Source: Escherichia coli
GTDB taxonomy: Bacteria > Pseudomonadota > Gammaproteobacteria > Enterobacterales > Enterobacteriaceae
Assembly (NCBI RefSeq): GCF_016903815.1
Contig: NZ_CP069973.1
Length of the DNA: 64,000 nt
Direction: 5' to 3' (one strand)
The notes below the pieces were generated by a model. It was given only the letters and a program-made list of their open reading frames with translations. It did not search any database and was not told the origin of the DNA. Shown here one piece after another: positions 21,207-63,344 of this stretch. Within the stretch, counting starts at the first letter, position 1; each line of letters opens with the position of its first letter. The position numbers and the translations under genes are program-made.

Positions 21207-21643
21207 GATTATGCAACTGCCTGTTCGGTTTTTCGTCAGCGATCATCAAAGTAAATAGCTTCGTTTTTCCCGGTGAACGTGAAGCTAGGGGAGATTATAC
21301 TTCCAGATGTTCATTCAGGGCAGAAGAATAATACATCAGTTAATTTTCTGTTAGTACTTTGTAGTCGAATGTTTGGGGAGTGTGTCTGAATGACAGCCAG
21401 ATGGAATGACTTTTTGTAGCCAGGTCATGACTACGACTCATACGCTATTCTTAATTCTTATTTCTTTCCATTATACGCAAGTATTTTTAATTTAGGTTTA
21501 TTACTATAATTATATTCACTTTGTCTTTATTCACTCTGTTTTTACTTACTCTCTATCTTTACTCATTCCATTACTCTGACCCTCACCCGATTATACTTAC
21601 TCCCTTCCTTGTCTAATCTTCATTGCCACCATTATCATGGTAT

Positions 21644-21697
21644 CCACCTTCTCCACCTTCTCCACCTTCTCCACCTTCTCCACCTTCTCCACCTTCT
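21644..21697. repeat. Tandem repeat, 9-bp unit CCACCTTCT x 6
   Basis: Counted directly in sequence; lies in a 1.3-kb AT-rich region without a convincing ORF. Confidence 0.9.
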
Positions 21698-22533
21698 CCT
21701 TCATTCAATCATAACTACTGTAATTCATACGATACTCAGATAAGTTATTTTACTACGTTGTTGCTAATATCTACCTGTTATCAGTCTTCACTGAAACAGC
21801 AATTGATTTTAGTCATTATCCATAATGAACTGTATTGACTTAACGATGATTGTTGTTGACCTGAAGTGTTTTAACTATTCTGGTAAATATCAATACTTCT
21901 GTCATCACTGATTAACTGGATGTTTACTCTTTGATAAGGTATCCATGATTTCGTCATGTTTAACAGCGCAGGATAAACAATGAAATTAACAGAGTGAATT
22001 CCTGATTATATTTGTTCGTTTCTGATTATCTTGTATGTTAAACAAAATGAAAATTATCCATCCATGGTATATTTTATTCTGGTGCCGTGTACCCGTTAAC
22101 GCTCATGTTTTGAAGTGAGTTGTTTTTAACAGATTAAATGAGAGTGTATGATTTTATCAGGTTACAGATATGTGTTGGCCTTGTACACGTTTTTGCAGAC
22201 TCACTGAGAGCAAGTTTGTAGTTTATGATGTGATTGGTCGCAATATGTTTCTTAATCTCCAGGTAGTGGGGTTTTAGCTCGTATTTTACAGTATTTCGTG
22301 ATGTTTTATTGAGTCTGTATTTTCTTTACTCCTCGTTTATCTCATCTCTTTAGCTAATACCATCAGATAATCCATTTCTTTCTGCATAATGCTGCGTATC
22401 GTTAATAACCCGTCGTATCCATTCTGCTACAGCATGCCTGATAAATACCATCTGTAAGTTATTACCGTTATGAGCGAAAGCATTAATTCGTTCACAGAGC
22501 TTAAAACATCATTAACTTTCAGGAGTCATCAAC

Positions 22534-24001: not shown

Positions 24002-24235
24002 ATGTTGACCACAACAAGCCACGACAGCGTGTTACTGCGTGCCGACGATCCCCTGATCGACATGAACTACATCACCAGTTTCACCGGTATGACCGATAAA
24101 TGGTTTTACAAGCTGATCAGTGAAGGTCATTTCCCTAAACCCATCAAACTGGGGCGCAGCAGCCGCTGGTACAAAAGTGAAGTGGAGCAGTGGATGCAGC
24201 AGCGAATTGAGGAATCACGAGGAGCAGCAGCATGA
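24002..24235 (+). CDS. alpA: AlpA-family phage regulatory protein (MerR-like HTH)
   Basis: MNYITSFTGMTDKWFYKLISEGHFPKPIKLGRSSRWYKSEVEQW matches the AlpA pattern. Confidence 0.75.
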   Translation: MLTTTSHDSVLLRADDPLIDMNYITSFTGMTDKWFYKLISEGHFPKPIKLGRSSRWYKSEVEQWMQQRIEESRGAAA

Positions 24236-24357
24236 AACGTGTTGCAATGCCGGCGCTGGTATTGCGGAAATCAGCCCTGTCCCCGATGCTGGCGACACTC
24301 CCGCTCATCTTTCTGCTGACTCCTCTGGTCTGCCAACTGTTTGTCATCATTTCCTGA
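24232..24357 (+). CDS. Putative 41-aa hydrophobic peptide translationally coupled to alpA (ATGA overlap)
   Basis: ATG at 24232 overlaps the alpA stop; AGGAG-like motif upstream; below the ORF-track size cutoff. Confidence 0.3.
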   Translation: MKRVAMPALVLRKSALSPMLATLPLIFLLTPLVCQLFVIIS

Positions 24358-24526
24358 CTGATTCGTCATTCCCTTCGTCCCGCCAGTCACTGGTGTTTGT
24401 ATCGTACCGTCCGGTGTTGATGTGCGTTTTCCGTGTGTCTGCACCGGCTTAACAAAATTCAACAGGGTTTGAAAAGGAACATTTCGTGCAAATAACCGAA
24501 GCCTTAATTTCAGAGCCGGGAGACAT

Positions 24527-24891
24527 CCGGCGTTTTGTTCAGCAGGCGCTGGAGTTCTTTAATCTGCTTCATGGCAGCAGCAAGTTCAGAGGCAGGAACG
24601 ACCTGTTCTCCTGCGGCCACAGCAGTAAGACTTCCCTCCTGGTATTGCTTGCGCCAGAGAAATAACTGGCTGGCTGCCACACCGTGTTGCCGGGCAACAA
24701 GGGAGACCGTCATTCCCGGTTCAAAGCTCTGCTGAACAATAGCGATCTTTTCCTGTGTAGTACGCCGTCTGCGTTTCTCCGGTCCTAAGACATCAATCAT
24801 CTGTTCTCCAATGACTAGTCTAAAAACTAGTATTAAGACTATCACTTATTTAAGTGATATTGGTTGTCTGGAGATTCTGGGGGCTAGTCTA
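24527..24891 (-). mobile_element. IS2 fragment (left end with truncated insC)
   Basis: Near-identical to the IS2 left end seen intact at 53024; InsC translation diverges after LQRLL; terminal GGGGGCTAGTCTA. Confidence 0.85.
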
Positions 24892-24939
24892 GTTTTAAAA
24901 CGCCCCCTGCCGTATCAGAACTGGGGAATGCTACAGGGT

Positions 24940-26048
24940 TTGACCTGTTCCTCGAGGATCGTAGCGGAGCTGGCCATGAAAAAATGATCCAGGCCCGAAA
25001 TCAGCTTCTTGCTGAAGCGGCGAAAAGTCCAGCGTTAAACATGGTTCGTCCTAACGGCATGAACGATGAGCCTCAGTTCCAGATTCTGATTGATGACGAG
25101 AAAGTTCAGGCGCTTAAACTGAGCATGAGCGACGTCGACAACATAATGTCAGCAGCCTGGGGTTCGATGTATGTAAATGATTTTAACGATCGTGGACGGG
25201 TGAAAAAAGTCTATATTTAGGGCGAACCCGGCTCACGTATATCACCGCAGGATTTTGATAAATGGTATGTCCGTAACAGTGATGGCGACATGGTTTCCTT
25301 TGCCTCTTTTGCAACAGGCAAATGGATTTATGGCTCACCAAAACTGGAGCAATATAATGGTATCTCTGCTGTCGAAATCCTGGGGGAACCGGCACCAGGA
25401 TACAGTTCCGGGGATGCAATGAAAGCAATTGAGGATATTGCGGCAAGACTTCCCGAAGGTTTCCATATTTCCTGGACAGGTTTGTCTTTTGAGGAACGAC
25501 TTTCAGGTTCTCAGGCTCCTGCACTATATGCACTTTCACTGTTGATCGTCTTTCTGTGTCTGGCTGCACTGTATGAAAGCTGGAGCATTCCTTTCTCGGT
25601 CATGCTGGTTGTTCCGCTTGGTGTCCTGAGGGCTGTCTGTGCTACTTTGTTGCGCGGCCTTGGTAACGATGTCTTTTTCCAGGTCGGTTTATTAACAACA
25701 ATAGGGCTGTCTGCGAAAAATGCCATACTTATCGTGGAGTTTGCTCGTGAATTGCATGAGAAAGAAGGACTAAGCATTAAAGAGGCTGCTGTTGAAGCGG
25801 CGAGAGTGAGGTTAAGACCGATAATTATGACTTCGCTGGCATTTGTAATGGGGGTTATCCCACTGGCTGTCTCGACTGGAGCAAGTTCCGGAAGTAAACA
25901 TGCCATCGGTACTGGTGTGGTTGGAGGGATGATCACTGCTACGATACTGGCAATCTTTTATATTCCTCTCTTCTATATGTTAATTGCCGGGTTCTTCAGC
26001 CGCAGAAATAAGAAATCATCGGATAAGACTGAAGCTGAGCAATCATAA
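24940..26048 (+). pseudogene. RND efflux transporter (AcrB/MdtF family), 3' portion only, with in-frame TAG at 25218..25220
   Basis: Translation aligns to the C-terminal third of AcrB-like pumps in one frame across the stop; 5' end removed at the IS2 fragment. Confidence 0.8.
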
Positions 26049-26147
26049 GCATGAGTAAATATTCAGGTGCAGTAAACAACATACTGCGCCTGAGTAAATG
26101 GCTGTTGGGTTGGTACTAAATGCCCCAGAGATATTTCCTGAAATAAG

Positions 26148-26819
26148 ATGTCAATGGAGATTTCAACAGTGGTGCGGCACACAAAATTTGCAGCGGAAGA
26201 AACCCGCAAACAAATCCTGGATGCGGCAGAGTTCTGCTTTTGTGAGACGGGCTTTTCGAAGACGACACTGGAGATGATTGCGGTGCGCGCAGGTTGTACT
26301 CGGGGGGCCATATACTGGTATTTCAACGAAAAAAAAGATCTTCTGCGACAAGTCATCGAGCGGGTACCACTATCATTATTTGATGAGCTTACAGCCATCA
26401 AAAATGGGAGAGTTTCTGAACCGGTTAAAGCGATGTATCGTTGCTTATCACGTAGCCTGATTAAATTACAATATAATGTACACTTACGGAATGTAATTTA
26501 TATTGTGTTTTTTTGTGAAGAATGTCCGGATGATATAAGAATAAATTTCTTACAAAAAATGGTGGATGTCAATAATTTTGTGAAATTACTATGTTATATT
26601 TTCGAAAAAGGTAAGTTATATAGAGAAATATGTTCGGAAATTCGTAGTGAGGCTCTGGCGTTCCTGCTTTTTTCTTTGTTTACGGGGGTGGTGCGAAGTT
26701 GCATTCTGCAACCTGATAATAAATCCCTTTTCAGAGAGGGTTGCATAGTACTGGAGTTGACCCAATCAACCTTCACAGGCATCGATAAAAATGAACGCTA
26801 CTATAAAAAACAGCGCTGA
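26148..26819 (+). CDS. TetR-family transcriptional regulator
   Basis: N-terminal TetR HTH (RKQILDAAEFCFCETGFSKTTLEMIAVRAGCTRGAIYWYF). Confidence 0.75.
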   Translation: MSMEISTVVRHTKFAAEETRKQILDAAEFCFCETGFSKTTLEMIAVRAGCTRGAIYWYFNEKKDLLRQVIERVPLSLFDELTAIKNGRVSEPVKAMYRCLSRSLIKLQYNVHLRNVIYIVFFCEECPDDIRINFLQKMVDVNNFVKLLCYIFEKGKLYREICSEIRSEALAFLLFSLFTGVVRSCILQPDNKSLFREGCIVLELTQSTFTGIDKNERYYKKQR

Positions 26820-26937
26820 TATCAATGAGCTTGCTAAATGAATTGATGAAAATCTTGAGGTAGAACTCTCAATAAATATTGAGGCAAAAAAGCTGGATAT
26901 TCAAAATGGTATTTACAGAAATTGTTTAAACATATCA

Positions 26938-27135
26938 TTGGTATTTCTATTGGTAGGTATATTAATAAATGCAGCAGAAGAACTACGTTCTACTACTGAA
27001 TCGGTCACGACTATCACTTTTAAATATCAGTTTGATTTTCAGCAGACATTTACAAGGGCATTTACTCGCCGCTTTGGTATAGCTCCTATTGCATACCGAA
27101 AACTCGCTAAGGAAGAAGTGAGATGGAATAGTTAG
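26938..27135 (+). pseudogene. AraC-family regulator, C-terminal HTH fragment
   Basis: FTRAFTRRFGIAPIAYRK resembles the second AraC helix; upstream frame is broken. Confidence 0.45.
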
Positions 27136-27444
27136 TTATGTAAGCGTTATTTACTTAAGCGTGGATATATAAGAATGGTATTATCAATATGTTGCTCATG
27201 AGTTTTTAATAGCATATAGGCTTGTTAACATAGCCCAGCAATATAATTTGCAGTGGGAGCAGGTATGCATACAGAACAGTGGGCGAGGACGAGCGTCCCT
27301 TTTCGAACAAGGTAGCAAAAGAGGAAGAAGAAAGACAAATACAACTGGGCCTGAAAGGGTAGTGTTTAAGCCCCCTTTCAGGGGGCCGTGTCAAAGCCGC
27401 CCGCTATGCAGATGGTTTTTTACTTTATCTGTTAAGCAAAAAAA

Positions 27445-27474
27445 TGCCGCGATAAAGAAATTGTTATCGCGGCA
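27445..27474 (-). terminator. Rho-independent terminator ending the microcompartment operon
   Basis: 10-bp stem GCCGCGATAA/TTATCGCGGC followed by a T7 run on the minus strand. Confidence 0.65.
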
Positions 27475-27491
27475 GCGTCATAGCAATTTAC

Positions 27492-28037
27492 TTATTTTTT
27501 CTTGCCGCTGGAACGAGGACCTTTCTTTGCTGCCTCCTGCGGTACATCAGATTTTGTAGGTTTAGTGTTTTCTATTGAGGGTTTAACCGGTTGATGCTGC
27601 TCCATGGACTTCAGCGTTTCATCAGTGACATCCATACAGGATGCGCTGATTGACGTATCAAGGTTAACCACCGGGAATGTCTGTGAAGGCGCGTTTTCAG
27701 CCTGCAGTGTCGGTTGTGCAGCAGGCACTTCAGGTTGAGGTTCTGCGACGCCGGCGGTCACTTTAGAGTGAATAATCTGCTCGATATGCTGCGCGGTGCG
27801 GGCGATCACCTTATGGGCATACACCTCGCCAACCCGGCTTGCCGCGCTGATGGCTGCCGCTACCGCCGCGTTAATTGCGCCCACTTCCCCTTCCAGCTTC
27901 ACGGTCACCATCCCGCCGCCTTTCGTCAATTCATAGCCTACCAGACTAACGTTAGCGGATTTCATTGCGGCATCGGCGGCTTCTACCGCCGCAGACATCC
28001 CGACGGTTTCGATTAAGCCTAAACTTTTCCCAGACAT
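27492..28037 (-). CDS. BMC-H shell protein (PduA/EutM fold) with a long C-terminal extension (PduK-like)
   Basis: MSGKSLGLIETVGMSAAVEAADAAMKSANVSLVGYE... canonical BMC domain; start at internal Met with AGGAGA upstream. Confidence 0.85.
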   Translation of the reverse strand: MSGKSLGLIETVGMSAAVEAADAAMKSANVSLVGYELTKGGGMVTVKLEGEVGAINAAVAAAISAASRVGEVYAHKVIARTAQHIEQIIHSKVTAGVAEPQPEVPAAQPTLQAENAPSQTFPVVNLDTSISASCMDVTDETLKSMEQHQPVKPSIENTKPTKSDVPQEAAKKGPRSSGKKK

Positions 28038-28081
28038 AAATTTCTCCTGTAATAAATTCAACTGTGCTGCGCGTCGTCGGC

Positions 28082-29233
28082 TTAACGTCCAACGTCTTCG
28101 TATAATAGCGCCGCTTTGTCCGTAACTTCCCACGGAAAGCTGTCGCGACCAAAGTGACCATAGCAGGCTGTTTTACGATAGCGGGGGACCAGCAGATCAA
28201 GCGTAGTAATGATGCCGAACACGCTAAGATCGAAATGGCTGTTAACGCCTCTCAGCAACGCTTCAGATGACACTGTTTGTGTACCGAAGGTGTTAATCCT
28301 GACGGAAACAGGGCGGGGCAGGCCGATGGCCCATCCCAACTGGACTTCACAGCGTGAGGCAAGCCCAGCGGCGACGATGTTTTTCGCCACATAGCGAGCA
28401 GCGTAGGCGGCGGAACGATCGACTTTCGACGGATCTTTGCCTGAAAACGCGCCGCCGCCATGGCAAGCCGCGCCGCCATAGGTATCAACAATAATTTTAC
28501 GCCCCGTTAGCCCGCAGTCACCCACCGGCCCGCCAATCACAAAACTGCCTGCAGGGTTCACCAGAAAGCGGGTTTGTGGCGTGAGCCAGTGCGAAGGCAT
28601 CACAGGTTTAACAATTTCTTCGATGACCGCTTCCCGTAGCGCGTCCAGAGAAACGTCAGGGCTGTGTTGGGTAGACACCACAACGGTATCTACTGAATGA
28701 ACACGATTATCCTGATAGCGCAGGGTAACCTGGCTTTTGGCATCAGGGAGTAAAAATGGTAACCGTTGGGATTTACGCAACTGCGCCTGGCGCTCCATCA
28801 GACGATGGGCGTATACCAGCGTGGCGGGCATCAGTTCCGACGTTTCATCACAGGCGTAACCGAAGGTGATGCCCTGATCGCCCGCCCCCAGTTCTTCCAT
28901 CGAGTGGCCGCGAATGCCGTCAGCAATATTGGCGGACTGTTTGCCAAGGATATTTAATACACAGCAGGTATTGCCATCAAACCCCAATCGCGAATGGTCG
29001 TAACCAATCTCTTTTATGGTGTTGCGGACAATCTTCTCAATATCCACGGCGGCATGGGTAGATATTTCTCCGGCAACAATAGTGGCACCAGTTTTCACCA
29101 AGCATTCACAGGCAACCTTACCCCACGGGTCCTGTAGGAGTATCGCATCCAAAATGGCATCAGAAATTTGGTCCGCCATTTTATCGGGATGCCCTTCGGC
29201 AACGGATTCGGAGGTAAACAGGTAATCGTTCAA
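28082..29233 (-). CDS. S-adenosylmethionine synthetase (MetK paralog) embedded in the microcompartment locus
   Basis: [32 protein letters not shown]... and [19 protein letters not shown] motifs. Confidence 0.9.
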
Positions 29234-29361
29234 AGCGAGCCCACTTGTTTGGGAAGTTTATTCCTATCTTAGGATAGGAACCTGACAAGTGGGCGTAAAC
29301 TATCTTGCGGGCGTGTTGGACTATTTTGCTTTCATTATCGGGCCAATGCAAAATCACGCCA

Positions 29362-30417
29362 TCACCGTGTAATTCCCGGGGACACGACTTTTCGATAATC
29401 AGAGGGGGTCATGCCAGTATCTTTTTTGAAGATGCGGCAAAAATAGTTTGAATCCTGGTATGCCAGTTCCAGCGCAATGGTATTTACTTGTAAGTCACTG
29501 AACCGCAATAACGATTTGGCGATAGTAATTTTACGCGTGGCAATATAGTTCGAAAACCCGAACCCGGTAATTTTCTTAAAGGTACGGCTCAAATAGCAGG
29601 CACTGACAAACGATTTTGCTGCCACGTCATCGAGCGTCAAGTTTCTGAGAATATTTTTCTCAATATGGAATTTCGCTCGTTCGATAAAATCGATATTGCC
29701 TGTATAGCCTTTTAATGCGTAATCAAACAGTTCTTCGCTAATGGTCAGCAGGCTGATCATGATGCGGAAATAGCGGCTTTCCATCATGCCATACTGGTTG
29801 ATGTCTTTGATCAGCGCGGCGACTTTACGGTTAGTCGGCATTAACTTTTCCCCTTTGGCGGTCATATACTGGCTAACTATTTCCAGAAAATCGATCACGT
29901 CTTTGCGCTTATCCTCTTCTATCATATCCACCGGACAGGCACCGTTGATCGTGTCAAAAATAAAGTTGTGCCACTGGGTGTAATCGCAATCGTCTATCAT
30001 GGCGAACACTTTCTGTTTTAGGGCGCGGGATTTTTCATTTTCTCCTTCGTCGAATGCTAGGGTTTTTTTGATGGTGTCGGTCAAGATACATTTTTTCACT
30101 GGTTTGAGCAGATAATCATCCACTTTAAGGTTGTACATGCTGCGTACTATATCAAAGTCATCATTGGCCGTGATTACGATGATTTTAGTATCGCTGTTTT
30201 TTTTCTTCAGATATTCAATCACCTGTTTACCGTTCGGCAACGGAATATTAATATCCACTAAGATCATATTGATTTGACTCAGTTGGTCAATTAAGTGAAT
30301 CGCTTTTTTACCGGTTGAGGCTTCATGGATCGCAGCGTTTTCCACACACTGGGAGATAATCTGCCGCAGGGATTCTAATTCGATGGGCTCATCTTCAACG
30401 ATAACAATGGTAAACAT
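29362..30417 (-). CDS. Response regulator, REC domain plus AraC-type HTH output
   Basis: N-terminal receiver (IVIVEDEP ... LVDINIP) and C-terminal AraC HTH. Confidence 0.8.
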   Translation of the reverse strand: MFTIVIVEDEPIELESLRQIISQCVENAAIHEASTGKKAIHLIDQLSQINMILVDINIPLPNGKQVIEYLKKKNSDTKIIVITANDDFDIVRSMYNLKVDDYLLKPVKKCILTDTIKKTLAFDEGENEKSRALKQKVFAMIDDCDYTQWHNFIFDTINGACPVDMIEEDKRKDVIDFLEIVSQYMTAKGEKLMPTNRKVAALIKDINQYGMMESRYFRIMISLLTISEELFDYALKGYTGNIDFIERAKFHIEKNILRNLTLDDVAAKSFVSACYLSRTFKKITGFGFSNYIATRKITIAKSLLRFSDLQVNTIALELAYQDSNYFCRIFKKDTGMTPSDYRKVVSPGITR

Positions 30418-30433
30418 ATGTCTTTTTCCTGTA

Positions 30434-31696
30434 TCAGGCTTCCTGCATTGGGAACCGAAGTTTAATGGTTGTACCCATCCTGGGTTTGTTAGGGCTCATT
30501 ATTTCCAAGCCATAGCTCTCGCCAAATAACAACTTCAATCTATTTTTTATGTTGTTAATACCAATACTGCCTTTTTGCAATTTTTGGTCGCCTGATAAAA
30601 TGCGATTAATGGTATCTGGTGCGATGCCGTCGCCATTGTCAGTGACTTCAATAATCACGTTCAGGCCATCGTCCGTGGCACGGATCAGCAGATGACTATT
30701 GCTATCCCTTGGCTCCACTACGTAGTTAAAGAAGTTTTCCACCAGCGGTTGCAGGATCAAAAACGGGCAGACTACATCCAGATATTTTTCCGGGATATCG
30801 CACAGGTAATCGAAACGGTCTCTCATACGCACTTTTTGGATCGACATATAGTTGTTGACGTAATTTATTTCATTACGCAGAGTAATCAGGCCGTGACTAT
30901 TTTTACGTAACAAATAGCGCATCATGTCAGAGAAATCGTGCACCATTGTTTCGGTACGCTGCGCATCTTCAAGAAAAGCTAACCGGCCAATGGTATTTAA
31001 TACGTTAAATAAAAAGTGCGGATTTATCTGATAAGAGAGCGCTTTAAATTCAGCTTCATGTAGTGAGCGTTCTATCTCTACACGTTTTCTTAACTCATTA
31101 GCCAGTGCAAGATCCTTTTTACGAAGTTCGCGTTGGATATTATTGGTGTGCGCTTGTTCGACCAGATAAGACGATACGTGTAGTAACGTCGAGGCAGTAG
31201 ACTCAAAACGCTCATACGGCATGCGACGTGTATTCTGGTGCAAATTAATTAACCAAGGATTATCTTTCCAGACGTCATTATTATTCAGAATATAGGAAAT
31301 GCTCTGTTCTTTCTCTTCTTCGACTTTTACCTGACCGGAAATAAAAGCACCGAGATAATGATCGTTAATCATGATTGGGACAGCGAATTCGACAAAACCG
31401 CAGTGGCAGCGATAAACCACCGGTTTGCGAGCGTGCATCGCGGCACGGCCACCAGCGTTGTCGCTTTCATAACAGTGGTGCGCCAGTGTCGGGTTGAGAC
31501 GCGAACGCATGCAGAAGTCTGAAAAACCGCTGGGCTTAGTGACCGGGATACCATTCTCATCCACAACCACGAGCGCGATCATCATTGATTTTGAAAAGTT
31601 GTCCTGCAGGGTCTGAAGGCGTTTTACATCCAAAAACTCATTTAATTTGTATTTATTCTTCATACTTTCAGCCTGCATTTTTAAAAACATAATCAT
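30434..31696 (-). CDS. Sensor histidine kinase with PocR-like sensory domain; start may be a downstream Met (about 31663)
   Basis: His-kinase motifs ([13 protein letters not shown]) and HATPase region; N-terminal domain resembles PocR. Confidence 0.75.
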
Positions 31697-31965
31697 ATAT
31701 TTATAAATAATTTGTCACGAAAAAATTGAAATGGATCACAGCAACAAAAACAGCTCCGGCTCTGAAAGTAATGCTTCGGTTATTTGCAAGGGATACTCCT
31801 TTTCAAACCTTGCTGAACCAGTGCAGATACACAGGGAAACGTATACCAGAACTGCCACAATACAAACGCCAGTTACTGGCGATACGAATGGAATGACGAG
31901 GCAGTCTGTCAGAAAGCCCCACATGAACGATCACCACCTACATAGGAGGTGTTTTAAAATTGATC

Positions 31966-33769
31966 GAGTAGGAGGCGGGATCACTCCCGCCGTCCTCTCA
32001 CACCACCGTACGTGCGGTTCCGCATACGGCGGTTCATGTTAACTCTGGAACTGCCTCTACTGTTCCAGCAGTGATATCAGACCCTGCCTCCTGAACCATG
32101 CATTCTTTATCGCCTGATTCATATGGCTTGACCCTGAGTTCCACCATGGCCCGTGGTTGTTGTACGCAGAGATCATTGCCCTGTCCTTACTCAGTCCTGC
32201 TCTTTGCAGATTCTTTGCCCGGGTTCGCGGTCTCTTCCACTGCCGCTACAACAAGCAACGCAGTTTCCGTTTGATCCAGCCATCCAGCTCCTCCAGCACT
32301 CCTCTGACTTCCGTCAGCCTGAAGTAGCTTATCCATCCACACAGCACTGGTGTCAGAGCATTGATTGTCGCTTTCACTGATTTGCTCCGGTTTCCCGTCG
32401 TCAGACTGTGGACTTTCTCCTTCAGCCTGTTCACGCTCGTCAGGGCTATCTTCAGCTTCGCCTGTTTGTGCCATGTCACACTGTACCCGAGGAACTTCCG
32501 ATCCCACGGGCGCGCCACCGCGCTCTTCTTCTCATTCACCTTCAGTTTGTTCTCCACGAACGCCCTGATGTTCTTCAGCAGATGGTCGCCCGCTTTCCGG
32601 CTGCTTACGTAGATGTTGCAGTCGTCTGCGTAGCGGCAGAAGCTGTGTCCACGACGCTCTAGTTCTTTATCCAGTTCATCCAGCAGGATGTTCGACAGTA
32701 ACGGCGACAGTGGGCCGCCCTGCAGCATGCCCGCCTGCCGTTTCTCCCTTTGCCCGTCTTTAACCATTTCCACTTTCAGGTAGCGGCGTATCAGTCACAG
32801 CACCCGCCTGTCCTTTATCGTTCTGGCCAGACGCGTCATCAGGAGTCTGTGATCCACCCGGTCGAAGAACTTCTCCAGATCCATATCCACCACCCACCGT
32901 TTGCCACCCCGTATGTAACGCTGTGCCTGTTGCACCGCCTGCTGGATAAGCCTGTCCACCACCGTCGGGATGCCTGAGGTTCTCACGCCGCCATCCGGCT
33001 TCGGGATATCCATCCGGCGTATTGCCCGCGGCTGGTAGTTTCCGTCAATCAATGCCTGCCTGACGCTGCGCCAGTTCTTCTTCAGCCACGGTTTCAACTC
33101 CGCCACGCTGAGGTTATCCACCCCCGCCGTGCCTTTGTTTTCCAGCACGCGCTGATAAGCCAGCATCAGGTTTTCTCTCGTTATCACCGCTTCCATCGTC
33201 AGCGGCACTTCCGCTTTCGTTTGCCCACCCGCCGCCGTGCTGATTTCAGCGCCATCATGCAGCCCTGACGGATACTGTCCGTCTCCTCTGCCGCTGGTCG
33301 CAGTTGCCTGCGCTTGTGCTTCATTAATCATCATCGGGTTCGGATGTCCTAATCACAGTTAATCATGTTCGGCCCTTCATGCTGCCGGTTTTGCAGCACT
33401 ACTACGGCGTCGGCTGACTTCTGCCGCCCCATCCCGGCGCCTCACGGCGCCGGTAGCACACTGGCAGGGCGACAGATCTCCCGGGGTAATTCACGTGACT
33501 TTCCTGCTTATGCCTGTCGGCTTTACGTCACAGCGTTCCGTGTGAGTATCGGGCTTTGGTGATTTGTGCCACCTTACCCTGCTGCGCCGCCTTAACCGCT
33601 TCCTGTTCGTCAGGCCAGCATTTTGCATCCAGCTTCCTTCAGATTTCACCTCGCGATGAACACCCTTGCCTTCCGCTAACACTTCCCCTCACCGGGTGTG
33701 TGGAGGACTTTCACCTCTTAGTCGTTCTTCTGCCACCACAGTTGAAGAACAGCGCCAGTCACGGCGCAC
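31966..33769 (-). mobile_element. Degenerate group II intron (class C-like) inserted after a terminator hairpin
   Basis: 5' end GTGCGCC immediately after hairpin 33771..33810; domain V-like CCGTATGCGGAACCGCACGTACGG near 32000; disrupted RT ORF inside. Confidence 0.65.
32246..33334 (-). pseudogene. Group II intron reverse transcriptase, disrupted (in-frame stop, internal deletion, C-terminal truncation)
   Basis: Two abutting ORFs (179 and 175 aa) with RT motifs FCRYADDCNIY and GGPLSPLLSNILLDELD. Confidence 0.8.
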
Positions 33770-33770
33770 A

Positions 33771-33810
33771 TAACAAAAAGCCAGCAGGCAGACACTGCTG
33801 GCTTTTTGTT
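33771..33810 (-). terminator. Rho-independent terminator after the membrane-protein gene
   Basis: AAAAAGCCAGCAG...CTGCTGGCTTTTTGTT hairpin. Confidence 0.7.
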
Positions 33811-48064: not shown

Positions 48065-48703
48065 TTGCCGCTGCACTGCTTCAGGAATGTATTCACCCCT
48101 CATAAAGGCTTCAATGACTCTCCGCCATGGCAAACATGCCATAGGGGGAGATTTTCAGATAATGATAATAATGTTCGCCCACATCCGATTGTAAATGGAT
48201 CAGAAAAACGGCCGCGTATTGCCCTGCTGAATGTGGATTACGTCACCAGTTTTGAACTGCCTTTTCGCTTGCTGCTTACCCGGACACCACAACTGATTGC
48301 CGCGCTGCGTGAAGAATGGGGCATCAGCCAGAAAAATGTGGTGTTTAACGATAAACGGTTTGGTTGCGTGTACAGCCTGAAGGCCAGCCTTTCTGGTGTG
48401 CCGGATACATTCCGGTATCATCTGTCTCACCGTATTCGTCGCGTGGTTGGGAATGAAAACACATCATTGCCATATCAGCAGGTTGCCCGGGAAGTGAAAG
48501 CGCCCCGTGAACGGCTGAAGTATGCACTGGAGGCGGGTTTACTGGTGACTGCACTGGACGGCCTGTTCTGGTTTGGCAGTCAGCGTATTGCGGCTGATGT
48601 TCTGAGGCTGAGAAAGGCCGGAATGCCGGTGGTGACCACGACCGTGGAGGTGCACGATAACCTGACAGGAACAACCCGCAAAGTACCGGCATACCATCTC
48701 TGA
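48065..48703 (+). CDS. Hypothetical protein (start uncertain)
   Basis: 212-aa ORF, no family recognised. Confidence 0.4.
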   Translation: MPLHCFRNVFTPHKGFNDSPPWQTCHRGRFSDNDNNVRPHPIVNGSEKRPRIALLNVDYVTSFELPFRLLLTRTPQLIAALREEWGISQKNVVFNDKRFGCVYSLKASLSGVPDTFRYHLSHRIRRVVGNENTSLPYQQVAREVKAPRERLKYALEAGLLVTALDGLFWFGSQRIAADVLRLRKAGMPVVTTTVEVHDNLTGTTRKVPAYHL

Positions 48704-52979: not shown

Positions 52980-53114
52980 AAATACGCAGGCTTGGCACGA
53001 ACTTAAACAGAGCAGTAAAGTGGTAGACTGGCCCCCTGAATCTCCAGACAACCAATATCACTTAAATAAGTGATAGTCTTAATACTAGTTTTTAGACTAG
53101 TCATTGGAGAACAG

Positions 53115-53480
53115 ATGATTGATGTCTTAGGGCCGGAGAAACGCAGACGGCGTACCACACAGGAAAAGATCGCAATTGTTCAGCAGAGCTTTGAACCGGG
53201 GATGACGGTCTCCCTCGTTGCCCGGCAACATGGTGTAGCAGCCAGCCAGTTATTTCTCTGGCGTAAGCAATACCAGGAAGGAAGTCTTACTGCTGTCGCC
53301 GCCGGAGAACAGGTTGTTCCTGCCTCTGAACTTGCTGCTGCCATGAAGCAGATTAAAGAACTCCAGCGCCTGCTCGGCAAGAAAACGATGGAAAATGAAC
53401 TCCTCAAAGAAGCCGTTGAATATGGACGGGCAAAAAAGTGGATAGCGCACGCGCCCTTATTGCCCGGGGATGGGGAGTAA
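53115..53480 (+). CDS. insC: IS2 transposase InsC (orfA)
   Basis: [56 protein letters not shown]. Confidence 0.95.
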
Positions 53481-54343
53481 GCTTAGTCAGCCGTTGTCTC
53501 CGGGTGTCGCGTGCGCAGTTGCACGTCATTCTCAGACGAACCGATGACTGGATGGATGGCCGCCGCAGTCGTCACACTGATGATACGGATGTGCTTCTCC
53601 GTATACACCATGTTATCGGAGAGCTGCCCACGTATGGTTATCGTCGGGTATGGGCGCTGCTTCGCAGACAGGCAGAACTTGATGGTATGCCTGCGATCAA
53701 TGCCAAACGTGTTTACCGGATCATGCGCCAGAATGCGCTGTTGCTTGAGCGAAAACCTGCTGTACCGCCATCGAAACGGGCACATACAGGCAGAGTGGCC
53801 GTGAAAGAAAGCAATCAGCGATGGTGCTCTGACGGGTTCGAGTTCTGCTGTGATAACGGAGAGAGACTGCGTGTCACGTTCGCGCTGGACTGCTGTGATC
53901 GTGAGGCACTGCACTGGGCGGTCACTACCGGCGGCTTCAACAGTGAAACAGTACAGGACGTCATGCTGGGAGCGGTGGAACGCCGCTTCGGCAACGATCT
54001 TCCGTCGTCTCCAGTGGAGTGGCTGACGGATAATGGTTCATGCTACCGGGCTAATGAAACACGCCAGTTCGCCCGGATGTTGGGACTTGAACCGAAGAAC
54101 ACGGCGGTGCGGAGTCCGGAGAGTAACGGAATAGCAGAGAGCTTCGTGAAAACGATAAAGCGTGACTACATCAGTATCATGCCCAAACCAGACGGGTTAA
54201 CGGCAGCAAAGAACCTTGCAGAGGCGTTCGAGCATTATAACGAATGGCATCCGCATAGTGCGCTGGGTTATCGCTCGCCACGGGAATATCTGCGGCAGCG
54301 GGCTTGTAATGGGTTAAGTGATAACAGATGTCTGGAAATATAG
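53438..54343 (+). CDS. insD: IS2 transposase InsD (orfB)
   Basis: 301-aa ORF with the IS3-family DDE core; overlaps insC in the frameshift arrangement. Confidence 0.95.
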
Positions 54344-54355
54344 GGGCAAATCCAA

Positions 54356-60604: not shown

Positions 60605-63344
<2,740 letters not shown>

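Follow-up and report, generated by a model that had tools for sequence, protein, structure and literature searches.

Two inverted leader and gene-start remnants in an Escherichia coli genomic island as probable scars of island evolution around the grp locus

Why would a segment of some 170 bp be present twice, in opposite orientations, within a single Escherichia coli genomic island, each copy next to the remains of a mobile element? The question arises from a 64,000-nt stretch of contig NZ_CP069973.1 (assembly GCF_016903815.1), which is referred to here as the window. One copy (copy A) lies downstream of an alpA-like gene and the other (copy B) lies within the grp operon, which encodes a glycyl-radical propanediol microcompartment, between grpO and grpP. 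A first-pass annotation of the window had pointed out the pair and, on account of its position at module boundaries, had proposed a recombination- or attachment-associated sequence, an intron homing target, or a small RNA or leader. Our analysis leads to a plainer answer: the inverted pair represents ordinary scars of island evolution, namely two truncated paralogous copies of a backbone leader together with the start of the gene which follows it. We found no sign that the two copies have a function of their own.

The repeated segment and gene X

The inverted duplication itself is real. In MAFFT and global alignments, copy A (window 24352-24519, plus strand) and copy B (31912-31756, minus strand) are identical at 125 of 154 ungapped columns (81%), which becomes 73% once the 17 gap columns are counted, and their longest perfect stretches measure 16, 13 and 12 nt. 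A repeat search returned the same relationship as two collinear arm pairs, 24458-24519/31756-31817 (62 nt, 85%) and 24356-24405/31857-31906 (50 nt, 84%). The identity is beyond chance, with a local alignment score of 77 compared to 9.9 +/- 1.6 (maximum 19) among approximately 290 random segments of the window, and copy A as a BLAST query against 28 Gb of E. coli genomes recovered the copy B loci (locus L015) with E = 2e-19. The core sequence quoted in the first-pass annotation, TGCAAATAACCGAAGC.TTA.TTTCAGAGCCGG, has exactly two occurrences in the window, where the expected number is 0. Similarity between the copies spans roughly 24352 to 24519, the likeness of copy A to the wider family reaches 24548, and copy B extends from 31912 (perhaps 31930) to 31756, the position at which its family similarity ends in every comparison. 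The copies do lie at module boundaries, with a fragment of the insertion sequence (IS) IS2 starting at 24549 next to copy A and, about 50 bp from copy B, the 3' terminus of a group II intron (31963). The repeated segment lies outside both the IS2 remnant (24549-24891) and the intron (31963-33769).

The identity of the segment becomes evident from its relatives. Searched by BLAST, copy A belongs to a multi-copy family that occupies 7,611 places, spread over 3,691 of the 5,426 complete E. coli genomes searched (median 2, up to 7 per genome), nearly all of them chromosomal. At intact loci, such as those of Nissle 1917, O157:H7, 23CRST013, 17MR471, TUM14697, E15, AH21B066, HY220605 and SM107, the family segment is a leader located just 5' of a gene and overlapping its start. 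We refer to this gene as gene X; it encodes a hypothetical island protein of 166-182 aa (PF27752; "UCP030791 family"). The shared core consists of the Shine-Dalgarno region, a GTG or TTG start codon and the first 11 codons of X (M-Q-I-T-E-A-L-I/L-S-E-P), and both window copies align with 11 other family loci. It is therefore very likely that both are remnants of the leader plus the 5' end of X. The usual module reads YfjI, YagK/YfjJ, a hypothetical protein of ~190 aa, an AlpA-like helix-turn-helix (HTH) protein, a small open reading frame (ORF), the leader, X, an ECs1377-family gene, a 77-aa protein and DUF4222. The leader occupies ~190 nt after alpA and the small ORF, which in most family loci encodes a 30-aa Cys-rich peptide (e.g. 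MKRVVMPVRWQCAKYQRWYCGNQPCPWCWR, CxxC...CxxxxxCxxC; L005 3862-3960, L009, L010). Nissle and O157 are intact family members without alpA upstream.

Protein X is uncharacterized and has no assigned function. As run here, Pfam-A, NCBIfam and PHROGs gave no match; the label PF27752 is precomputed in the protein database, and RefSeq names some members "UCP030791 family putative phage-derived protein". In a BLASTP comparison, X showed no similarity to the YagK/YfjJ protein encoded in its own module. Members of this narrow family come mostly from Escherichia and Salmonella and share at least 80% identity. A scan of genome contigs with protein X yielded two loci, and the diversity of the family was accordingly sampled from E. 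coli records. Within that sample the family is mosaic: loci L003 and L014 share 98% identity in X against 70% in the leader, a pattern which is reversed between L002 and L003. Pairs which are alike in X but not in the leader, or vice versa, indicate that recombination near the start of X is frequent. Three variants of the Shine-Dalgarno region (GGTTTGAAAAGGAAC, GGGGATAAAATA and AGTCTGAAGGAGT) also alternate between leaders which are similar in other respects.

Copy A has kept its native position behind alpA; the alpA-like gene is part of the island backbone module consisting of YagK/YfjJ, a hypothetical gene and AlpA. From YagK through codon 21 of X, the window is ~97% identical to the intact SM107 module, with 7 differences in 24340-24548. 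At that codon the gene is interrupted by an IS2 remnant, which is fused to it by deletion, and the RefSeq annotation (PGAP) of strain M217, collinear with the window from ~21.8 to 49 kb, treats 24486-24569 as an incomplete pseudogene. The decayed cargo beyond, a segment from an RND permease pseudogene to a TetR-family gene, is present in 528 E. coli genomes, always inside the grp island and in no other context. Copy A, copy B and this cargo segment are each at least 99% identical in ~530 genomes (528 to 535 records).

Copy B and the grpPQRS block

The position of copy B is different, as it does not directly follow alpA and has 50 bp and an intron on its upstream side. These 50 bp (31913-31962) have no other matches in E. 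coli. On the downstream side, native homology to the region upstream of grpP starts at 31754-31755, the base adjoining the end of copy B, such that 58 bp of native sequence are retained; farther upstream there is copy B, then the 50 bp, then the intron. The only promoter-like site that we found (GTGACA-18-GATTAT, 31718-31689) lies inside the native grpP sequence. Its -10 element (GATTAT) overlaps the annotated ATG of grpP. The annotation (31696, 420 aa) probably places the start 33 nt too early, and the ATG at 31663 would be the genuine one, because outgroup GrpP proteins have 409 aa and both nucleotide and protein similarity begin at 31663.

The relative orientation of the copies is best understood from the order of the grp genes. 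In four of four enterobacterial outgroup loci (L017, L018, L019 and L026), grpM-grpN-grpO is followed, after 85-115 bp, by grpS, grpR, grpQ and grpP on the opposite strand, and the two blocks converge. The GrpO proteins of these outgroups are 91% (Atlantibacter hermannii), 85% and 81% (two assemblies) and 76% (Mixta tenebrionis) identical to that of the window. The E. coli order, which occurs in ~10% of complete genomes, is instead collinear from grpO through grpP, grpQ, grpR and grpS. Given that all four outgroups are convergent, the collinear order was probably derived by inversion of grpPQRS. The two copies would then be inverted relative to each other because the segment carrying grpPQRS was flipped.

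Both outer limits of the grp locus are recognizable as well. The junction between X codon 11/12 and position -58 of grpP is one end of the inserted grp locus, and a truncated ECs1377-family gene is the other. From the orientations and the junctions, with the outgroup comparison made at the T1, T2 and grpP ends (T1 and T2 being the native terminators of grpO and grpS, respectively), we infer that a whole convergent grp locus replaced the interval from X codon 12 to approximately codon 44 of the ECs1377 gene. Once the inversion is undone, the leader, the X fragment and the ECs1377 fragment share the plus-strand orientation of alpA, which amounts to a clean replacement. Next to T2 there is a T1-like stretch (27392-27420, with resemblance extending to 27430) which has a weak, gapped likeness to the outgroup T1 plus spacer and could be a decayed second T1. 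It is preceded by a strong 10-bp hairpin (CCTGAAAGGG...CCCTTTCAGG) at 27349-27390 on the plus strand; neither of these features is explained by the inversion models considered below.

The intron occupies one of the junctions. It is present in every E. coli grp locus listed, in sense orientation inside the operon and directly after the grpO terminator: the match of the grpO 3' end and T1 to Atlantibacter (window 33879-33775, 80%) stops at the T-run, ~5 bases before the intron GTGCG at 33769. With its reverse transcriptase/maturase ORF split in two (32246-32773 and 32795-33334), the intron falls ~100 nt short of the length of intact plasmid copies of 95% identity. We take it to be a terminator-targeting, class C-like bacterial group II intron. 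A hairpin with a T-run likewise precedes L024, the other copy whose 5' boundary could be placed, and the 3' flanks of all three copies (window, L023 and L024) are unrelated. The coordinates of all features are collected in Table 1.

Table 1. Features of the window around the two copies and the grp locus (primes mark truncated genes)
Feature	Position	Strand	Evidence or remark
alpA-like HTH/excisionase-family gene	24002..24235	+	ORF list; RefSeq annotation of collinear M217; weak TIGR01764 "excise" match
Small ORF overlapping alpA stop	24232..24357	+	41 aa; 26-bp deletion at ~24246 shifts frame
Copy A leader (non-coding), from alpA/small ORF to X	24352..24485	+	Weak hairpin CGCCAGTCACTGGTG+TTTGTAT; conserved block GTCTGCACCGGCTTAACAAAAT
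Copy A start of X, GTG + first 21 codons (X')	24486..24548	+	Alignment with intact X genes
IS2 left-end remnant: left inverted repeat (IRL) + 5' part of orfA (IS2')	24549..24891	-	Translation matches IS2 InsC; annotated "transposase, incomplete"; IRL end read at 24891
Decayed cargo: RND permease pseudogene (RND'), TetR-family gene, AraC-type HTH fragment (HTH')	24903..27135	+	RefSeq annotation; genome search
T2, native terminator downstream of grpS	27438..27473	-	Window 27440-27524 vs L017 grpS 3' end/terminator, 70%, E 0.003
grpS, grpR, grpQ, grpP block	27492..31696	-	Inverted relative to all outgroup grp loci
Native grpP upstream sequence	31697..31755	-	Window 31754-31604 vs Atlantibacter L017, 84%, E 3e-42
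Copy B start of X, TTG (31789) + 11 codons and 1 nt (X')	31756..31789	-	Ends exactly at native grpP upstream junction
Copy B leader	31790..31912	-	Family likeness may reach ~31930
~50 bp between intron 3' end and copy B	31913..31962	-	Hairpin CACCTCCTA-TG-TAGGTGGTG
Degenerate terminator-targeting group II intron (putative class)	31963..33769	-	Rfam RF00029, RF01998, RF02001; boundaries by alignment to other copies
T1, native intrinsic terminator of grpO	33775..33802	-	Hairpin 33802-33780 + T-run
5'-truncated ECs1377-family gene ('ECs1377)	48197..48696	+	Just past grpA; lacks ~44 codons; normally follows X

Mobile element, regulatory element or passenger

Several explanations can be envisioned for the inverted pair. 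A segment that is present in up to seven copies per genome and adjoins mobile elements could itself be a mobile or site-specific element, such as an intron homing site, an attachment (att) or recombinase site, or a repeat resembling a miniature inverted-repeat transposable element, and the fairly recurrent limits of its remnants (left ~24326-24352, right ~24519-24548) might be read in the same way. However, these limits vary by tens of bases between remnants, and intact loci keep the same neighbors, being located 5' of X and usually 3' of alpA. The proposed role as an intron homing target does not hold, as the intron follows the grpO terminator, which is its apparent target, the 3' flanks of the other intron copies are unrelated, and copy A has no intron. 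The proposed attachment-associated role is likewise contradicted by the location of both copies in the island interior, with no tRNA gene in the window and no integrase gene nearby; the only integrase remnant is found in M217 at ~856,164-856,349, past the end of its collinearity with the window. Nor does the pair behave like an invertible switch: the alternative junction was present in 0 of 5,426 genomes, exact-pattern scans of metagenome contigs for either predicted junction gave 0, and there is no recombinase gene nearby. We therefore give the mobile-element explanation almost no credence.

Another explanation is a cis-regulatory element, whether a promoter, an attenuator, a 5' untranslated region or a small RNA (sRNA), retained for its control over the genes downstream of it; copy B would then supply the transcription or regulation of grpPQRS. 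Of the earlier proposal of a small RNA or leader, the latter part stands, as the segment comprises the leader of a conserved island gene with its start codon and the codons next to it, whereas the former part found no support. In Rfam 15, only intron models reach the gathering score in the window, and at E <= 10 nothing credible appears in copy A or in the intact Nissle leader. Single-sequence folds are no more stable than shuffles (z = -0.63 and -0.78), and RNAalifold, applied with limited power to 13 fairly similar family members, returned one hairpin with 1 compensatory pair in 23 and a covariation term of -0.64 kcal/mol. Pairwise comparison of nine or ten intact loci gave a mean identity of 0.79 for the leader and of 0.88, 0.90 and 0.82 for X codon positions 1, 2 and 3, respectively. 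The value for the leader is close to that for third positions, indicating that the leader has drifted like synonymous sites and is not conserved above them. On the other hand, independent remnants (A, B and L016) retain the leader and ~11-21 codons upstream of cargo and in the orientation of the cargo, and L013 retains the leader too, with a longer, degenerate X fragment. One block, GTCTGCACCGGCTT, is conserved at 0.83-0.88, the first 60 nt of X reach 0.92-0.95, and a terminator-like hairpin (GCCGG-N7-CCGGC) with a T-run lies at codons 10-17. Furthermore, GrpP/GrpQ is a working two-component system in the uropathogenic E. coli (UPEC) strain CFT073, where its genes are co-transcribed, D-serine-induced and active when cloned "with its own promoter", and where a role in the control of type 1 fimbriae has been reported (PMC11724981); the text of that study maps no grpPQ promoter. 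Expression of grpPQ from "its own promoter" and the short native sequence left upstream of grpP are both compatible with a contribution from copy B. Still, a sigma-70 promoter scan found no site inside either copy, and the sole candidate is in the native grpP sequence. The small alpA-proximal hairpin with TTTGTAT which is common to copies A and B is missing from many family members, and copy A faces an antisense IS2 remnant and pseudogenes. A regulatory role is thus unlikely in our estimation, though better founded than a mobile one.

Three further candidates were examined in this context and rejected. The near-invariant first 11 codons of X might have carried a nucleotide-level signal, but another X block at +216 to +250 is equally well conserved (0.97), and protein-level constraint is thus enough to account for conservation at the 5' end of the coding sequence. 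An antisense ORF of ~30 aa, in frame in both copies, does not persist in L010-L012, where an 11-nt deletion disrupts it. Lastly, Esr41, as a candidate island sRNA, is located between z1181 and z1182 in a different architecture.

This leaves the question of whether the copies caused the inversion or were simply carried along with it. Taking both as remnants of one backbone segment of CP4-57/P4-integrase-type islands, we favor, by a modest preference, the view that they were passengers of the inversion. Under this scenario, two modules would originally have stood in tandem: alpA, leader A and 21 codons of X, followed by the cargo (IS2', RND', TetR and HTH'), then the 50 bp, leader B and 11 codons of X, followed by grpP, grpQ, grpR and grpS reading toward T2, with T1 and the convergent genes from grpO to grpA beyond it, and finally the truncated ECs1377 gene. 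An inversion running from the 50 bp to T2 would then have turned the direct repeats into inverted ones, and a terminator-targeting intron would have entered behind T1. The copies would have no function of their own, with copy B at most forming part of a chimeric region upstream of grpPQ. This history keeps T2 beside T1, as in the outgroups, until the inversion occurs. It also has a parallel in strain A12, in which alpA, the leader and ~15 codons of X are followed on the same strand by a ~12-kb microcin H47/M cluster and then by a partial leader, X, an ECs1377-like gene and a 77-aa gene, demonstrating that tandem leader copies around cargo do exist in direct orientation. In Nissle 1917, IS elements have removed the upstream part of the microcin island. 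Several points weigh against the passenger scenario. The tandem pre-state is inferred, and an un-inverted locus of E. coli type was found neither in the complete genomes nor in a pattern scan of metagenome contigs (0 contigs with un-inverted T1-T2 adjacency, a weak negative given that exact matches were required). An inversion with endpoints outside the repeats has no identified mechanism, and both the 50 bp (31913-31962) and the weak T1-like stretch (27392-27420) are left unaccounted for. From the sequence arrangement, copy B might also influence how grpPQ is expressed, if at a low probability. The main competitor is the possibility that the repeats served as the substrate for the inversion. 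In this case, the copies would already have been inverted, and homologous recombination between them would have flipped a 7.2-kb segment running from one X' through IS2', RND', TetR, HTH', grpS, grpR, grpQ and grpP to the other X'. The repeats bracket exactly the block which is inverted relative to the four outgroups, undoing the flip yields a clean single-module replacement (alpA, leader and 11 codons of X, then the grp locus, then 'ECs1377), and the mosaicism around the X start indicates that recombination does happen there. Nonetheless, for RecA-dependent recombination to be efficient in E. coli, perfect homology must extend farther, over ~20-30 bp, and repeats of 81% identity with perfect runs of no more than 16 nt are a poor substrate. 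The required pre-state, in which alpA, the leader and 11 codons of X lead into grpP, grpQ, grpR and grpS, with a 3.2-kb foreign piece (the 50 bp, leader, 21 codons of X, IS2', RND', TetR and HTH') lying inverted between T2 and T1, demands an unprecedented prior insertion of that piece into the ~15-bp T1-T2 spacer. Copy A is uniformly of SM107 type with no visible chimerism, unless the crossover fell within the conserved first 11 codons. The predicted pre-inversion junction, built synthetically (J1), was found in 0 of the 5,426 genomes, and an A-type leader fused to X' and grpP was found in 0 metagenome contigs, the latter again a weak negative due to the requirement for exact matches. Recombination between the repeats is thus possible as the origin of the grpPQRS inversion, but it is doubtful and ranks behind the passenger scenario.

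What the scars record, and comparison with known systems

As a sequence element, the duplicated segment is of little weight. It is a pseudogene-like scar, and the copy A fragment has already been flagged as incomplete by RefSeq. As a record, it is more useful, because the scars provide base-precise junctions from which the assembly and inversion of the E. coli grp island can be reconstructed. They are also relevant for mapping the grpP promoter, as everything beyond the 58 bp of native upstream sequence is island remnant and intron. A bolder proposal would be that the X leader and first codons are a preferred docking or recombination point for cargo and that copy B, together with the intron, rewired grpPQ. 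We regard this as improbable, but if it were true, E. coli-specific expression of grpPQ, a two-component system linked to virulence (e.g. D-serine induction), would depend upon island-derived sequence. The microcin H47/M cluster of A12 (L028/L030, NZ_CP028762.1 4434520-4451055) suggests that the 5' region of X is a recurrent cargo junction in this island family. The insertion point in A12, ~15 codons into the X which follows alpA, corresponds to that of the window cargo; a second leader-X-ECs1377-like set comes next, and then cdiBA.

Some additional observations concern other parts of the window. The spacer between the sugar-kinase and YagK/YfjJ genes contains a perfect 9-bp tandem repeat (TCCACCTTC x 6.3) at 21643-21699, of which M217 has 3 copies, a length polymorphism amounting to a 27-nt difference. 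The 3' end of a different group II intron is found at 62788-62874 on the plus strand (Rfam Intron_gpII, 64.9 bits), inverted with respect to the first one. Its flank up to 62960 translates as an IS3-family transposase, which places this second intron inside an IS. Compared with M217, there are 1.3 kb of additional sequence in the window at ~53023-54354, and all similarity between the two is lost past 60219. The window thus derives from a strain related to M217 but distinct from it, and the island varies in its right-hand part.

When compared with characterized systems, the locus resembles islands of the CP4-57 and CP4-44 type, which encode P4-family integrases. Copy A occupies the same module position after alpA as in those islands, where the module is intact in SM107, 23CRST013, 17MR471 and others, whereas the window has only truncated copies. 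A12, in its microcin H47/M island, shows the same succession of a leader with a few X codons, cargo, and a second leader-X, as in the window with its RND/TetR and grp cargo. Its copies are direct, however, while the second copy of the window is inverted and the segment with grpPQRS is flipped along with it. The locus has a certain similarity to chromosomal inversions between IS, rrn or prophage repeats, in which inverted homologous sequences also bracket the flipped segment, but the repeats of the window are only ~170 bp long and 81% identical, and its orientation is fixed in 5,426 genomes. It similarly recalls the fimS and hin-type switches, in that inverted repeats flank a segment containing regulatory genes. 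In contrast to these, the window has no adjacent recombinase, its repeats have diverged and are long, where those of the switches are short and exact, the segment measures 7 kb, and a single orientation is seen. Finally, the intron fits the habit of terminator-targeting introns, as its insertion point is a few bases past the grpO T-run, just as L024 lies after a terminator hairpin. The repeat is located on the 3'-exon side of this intron and is not common to the other copies, and it is therefore neither part of the intron nor its target.

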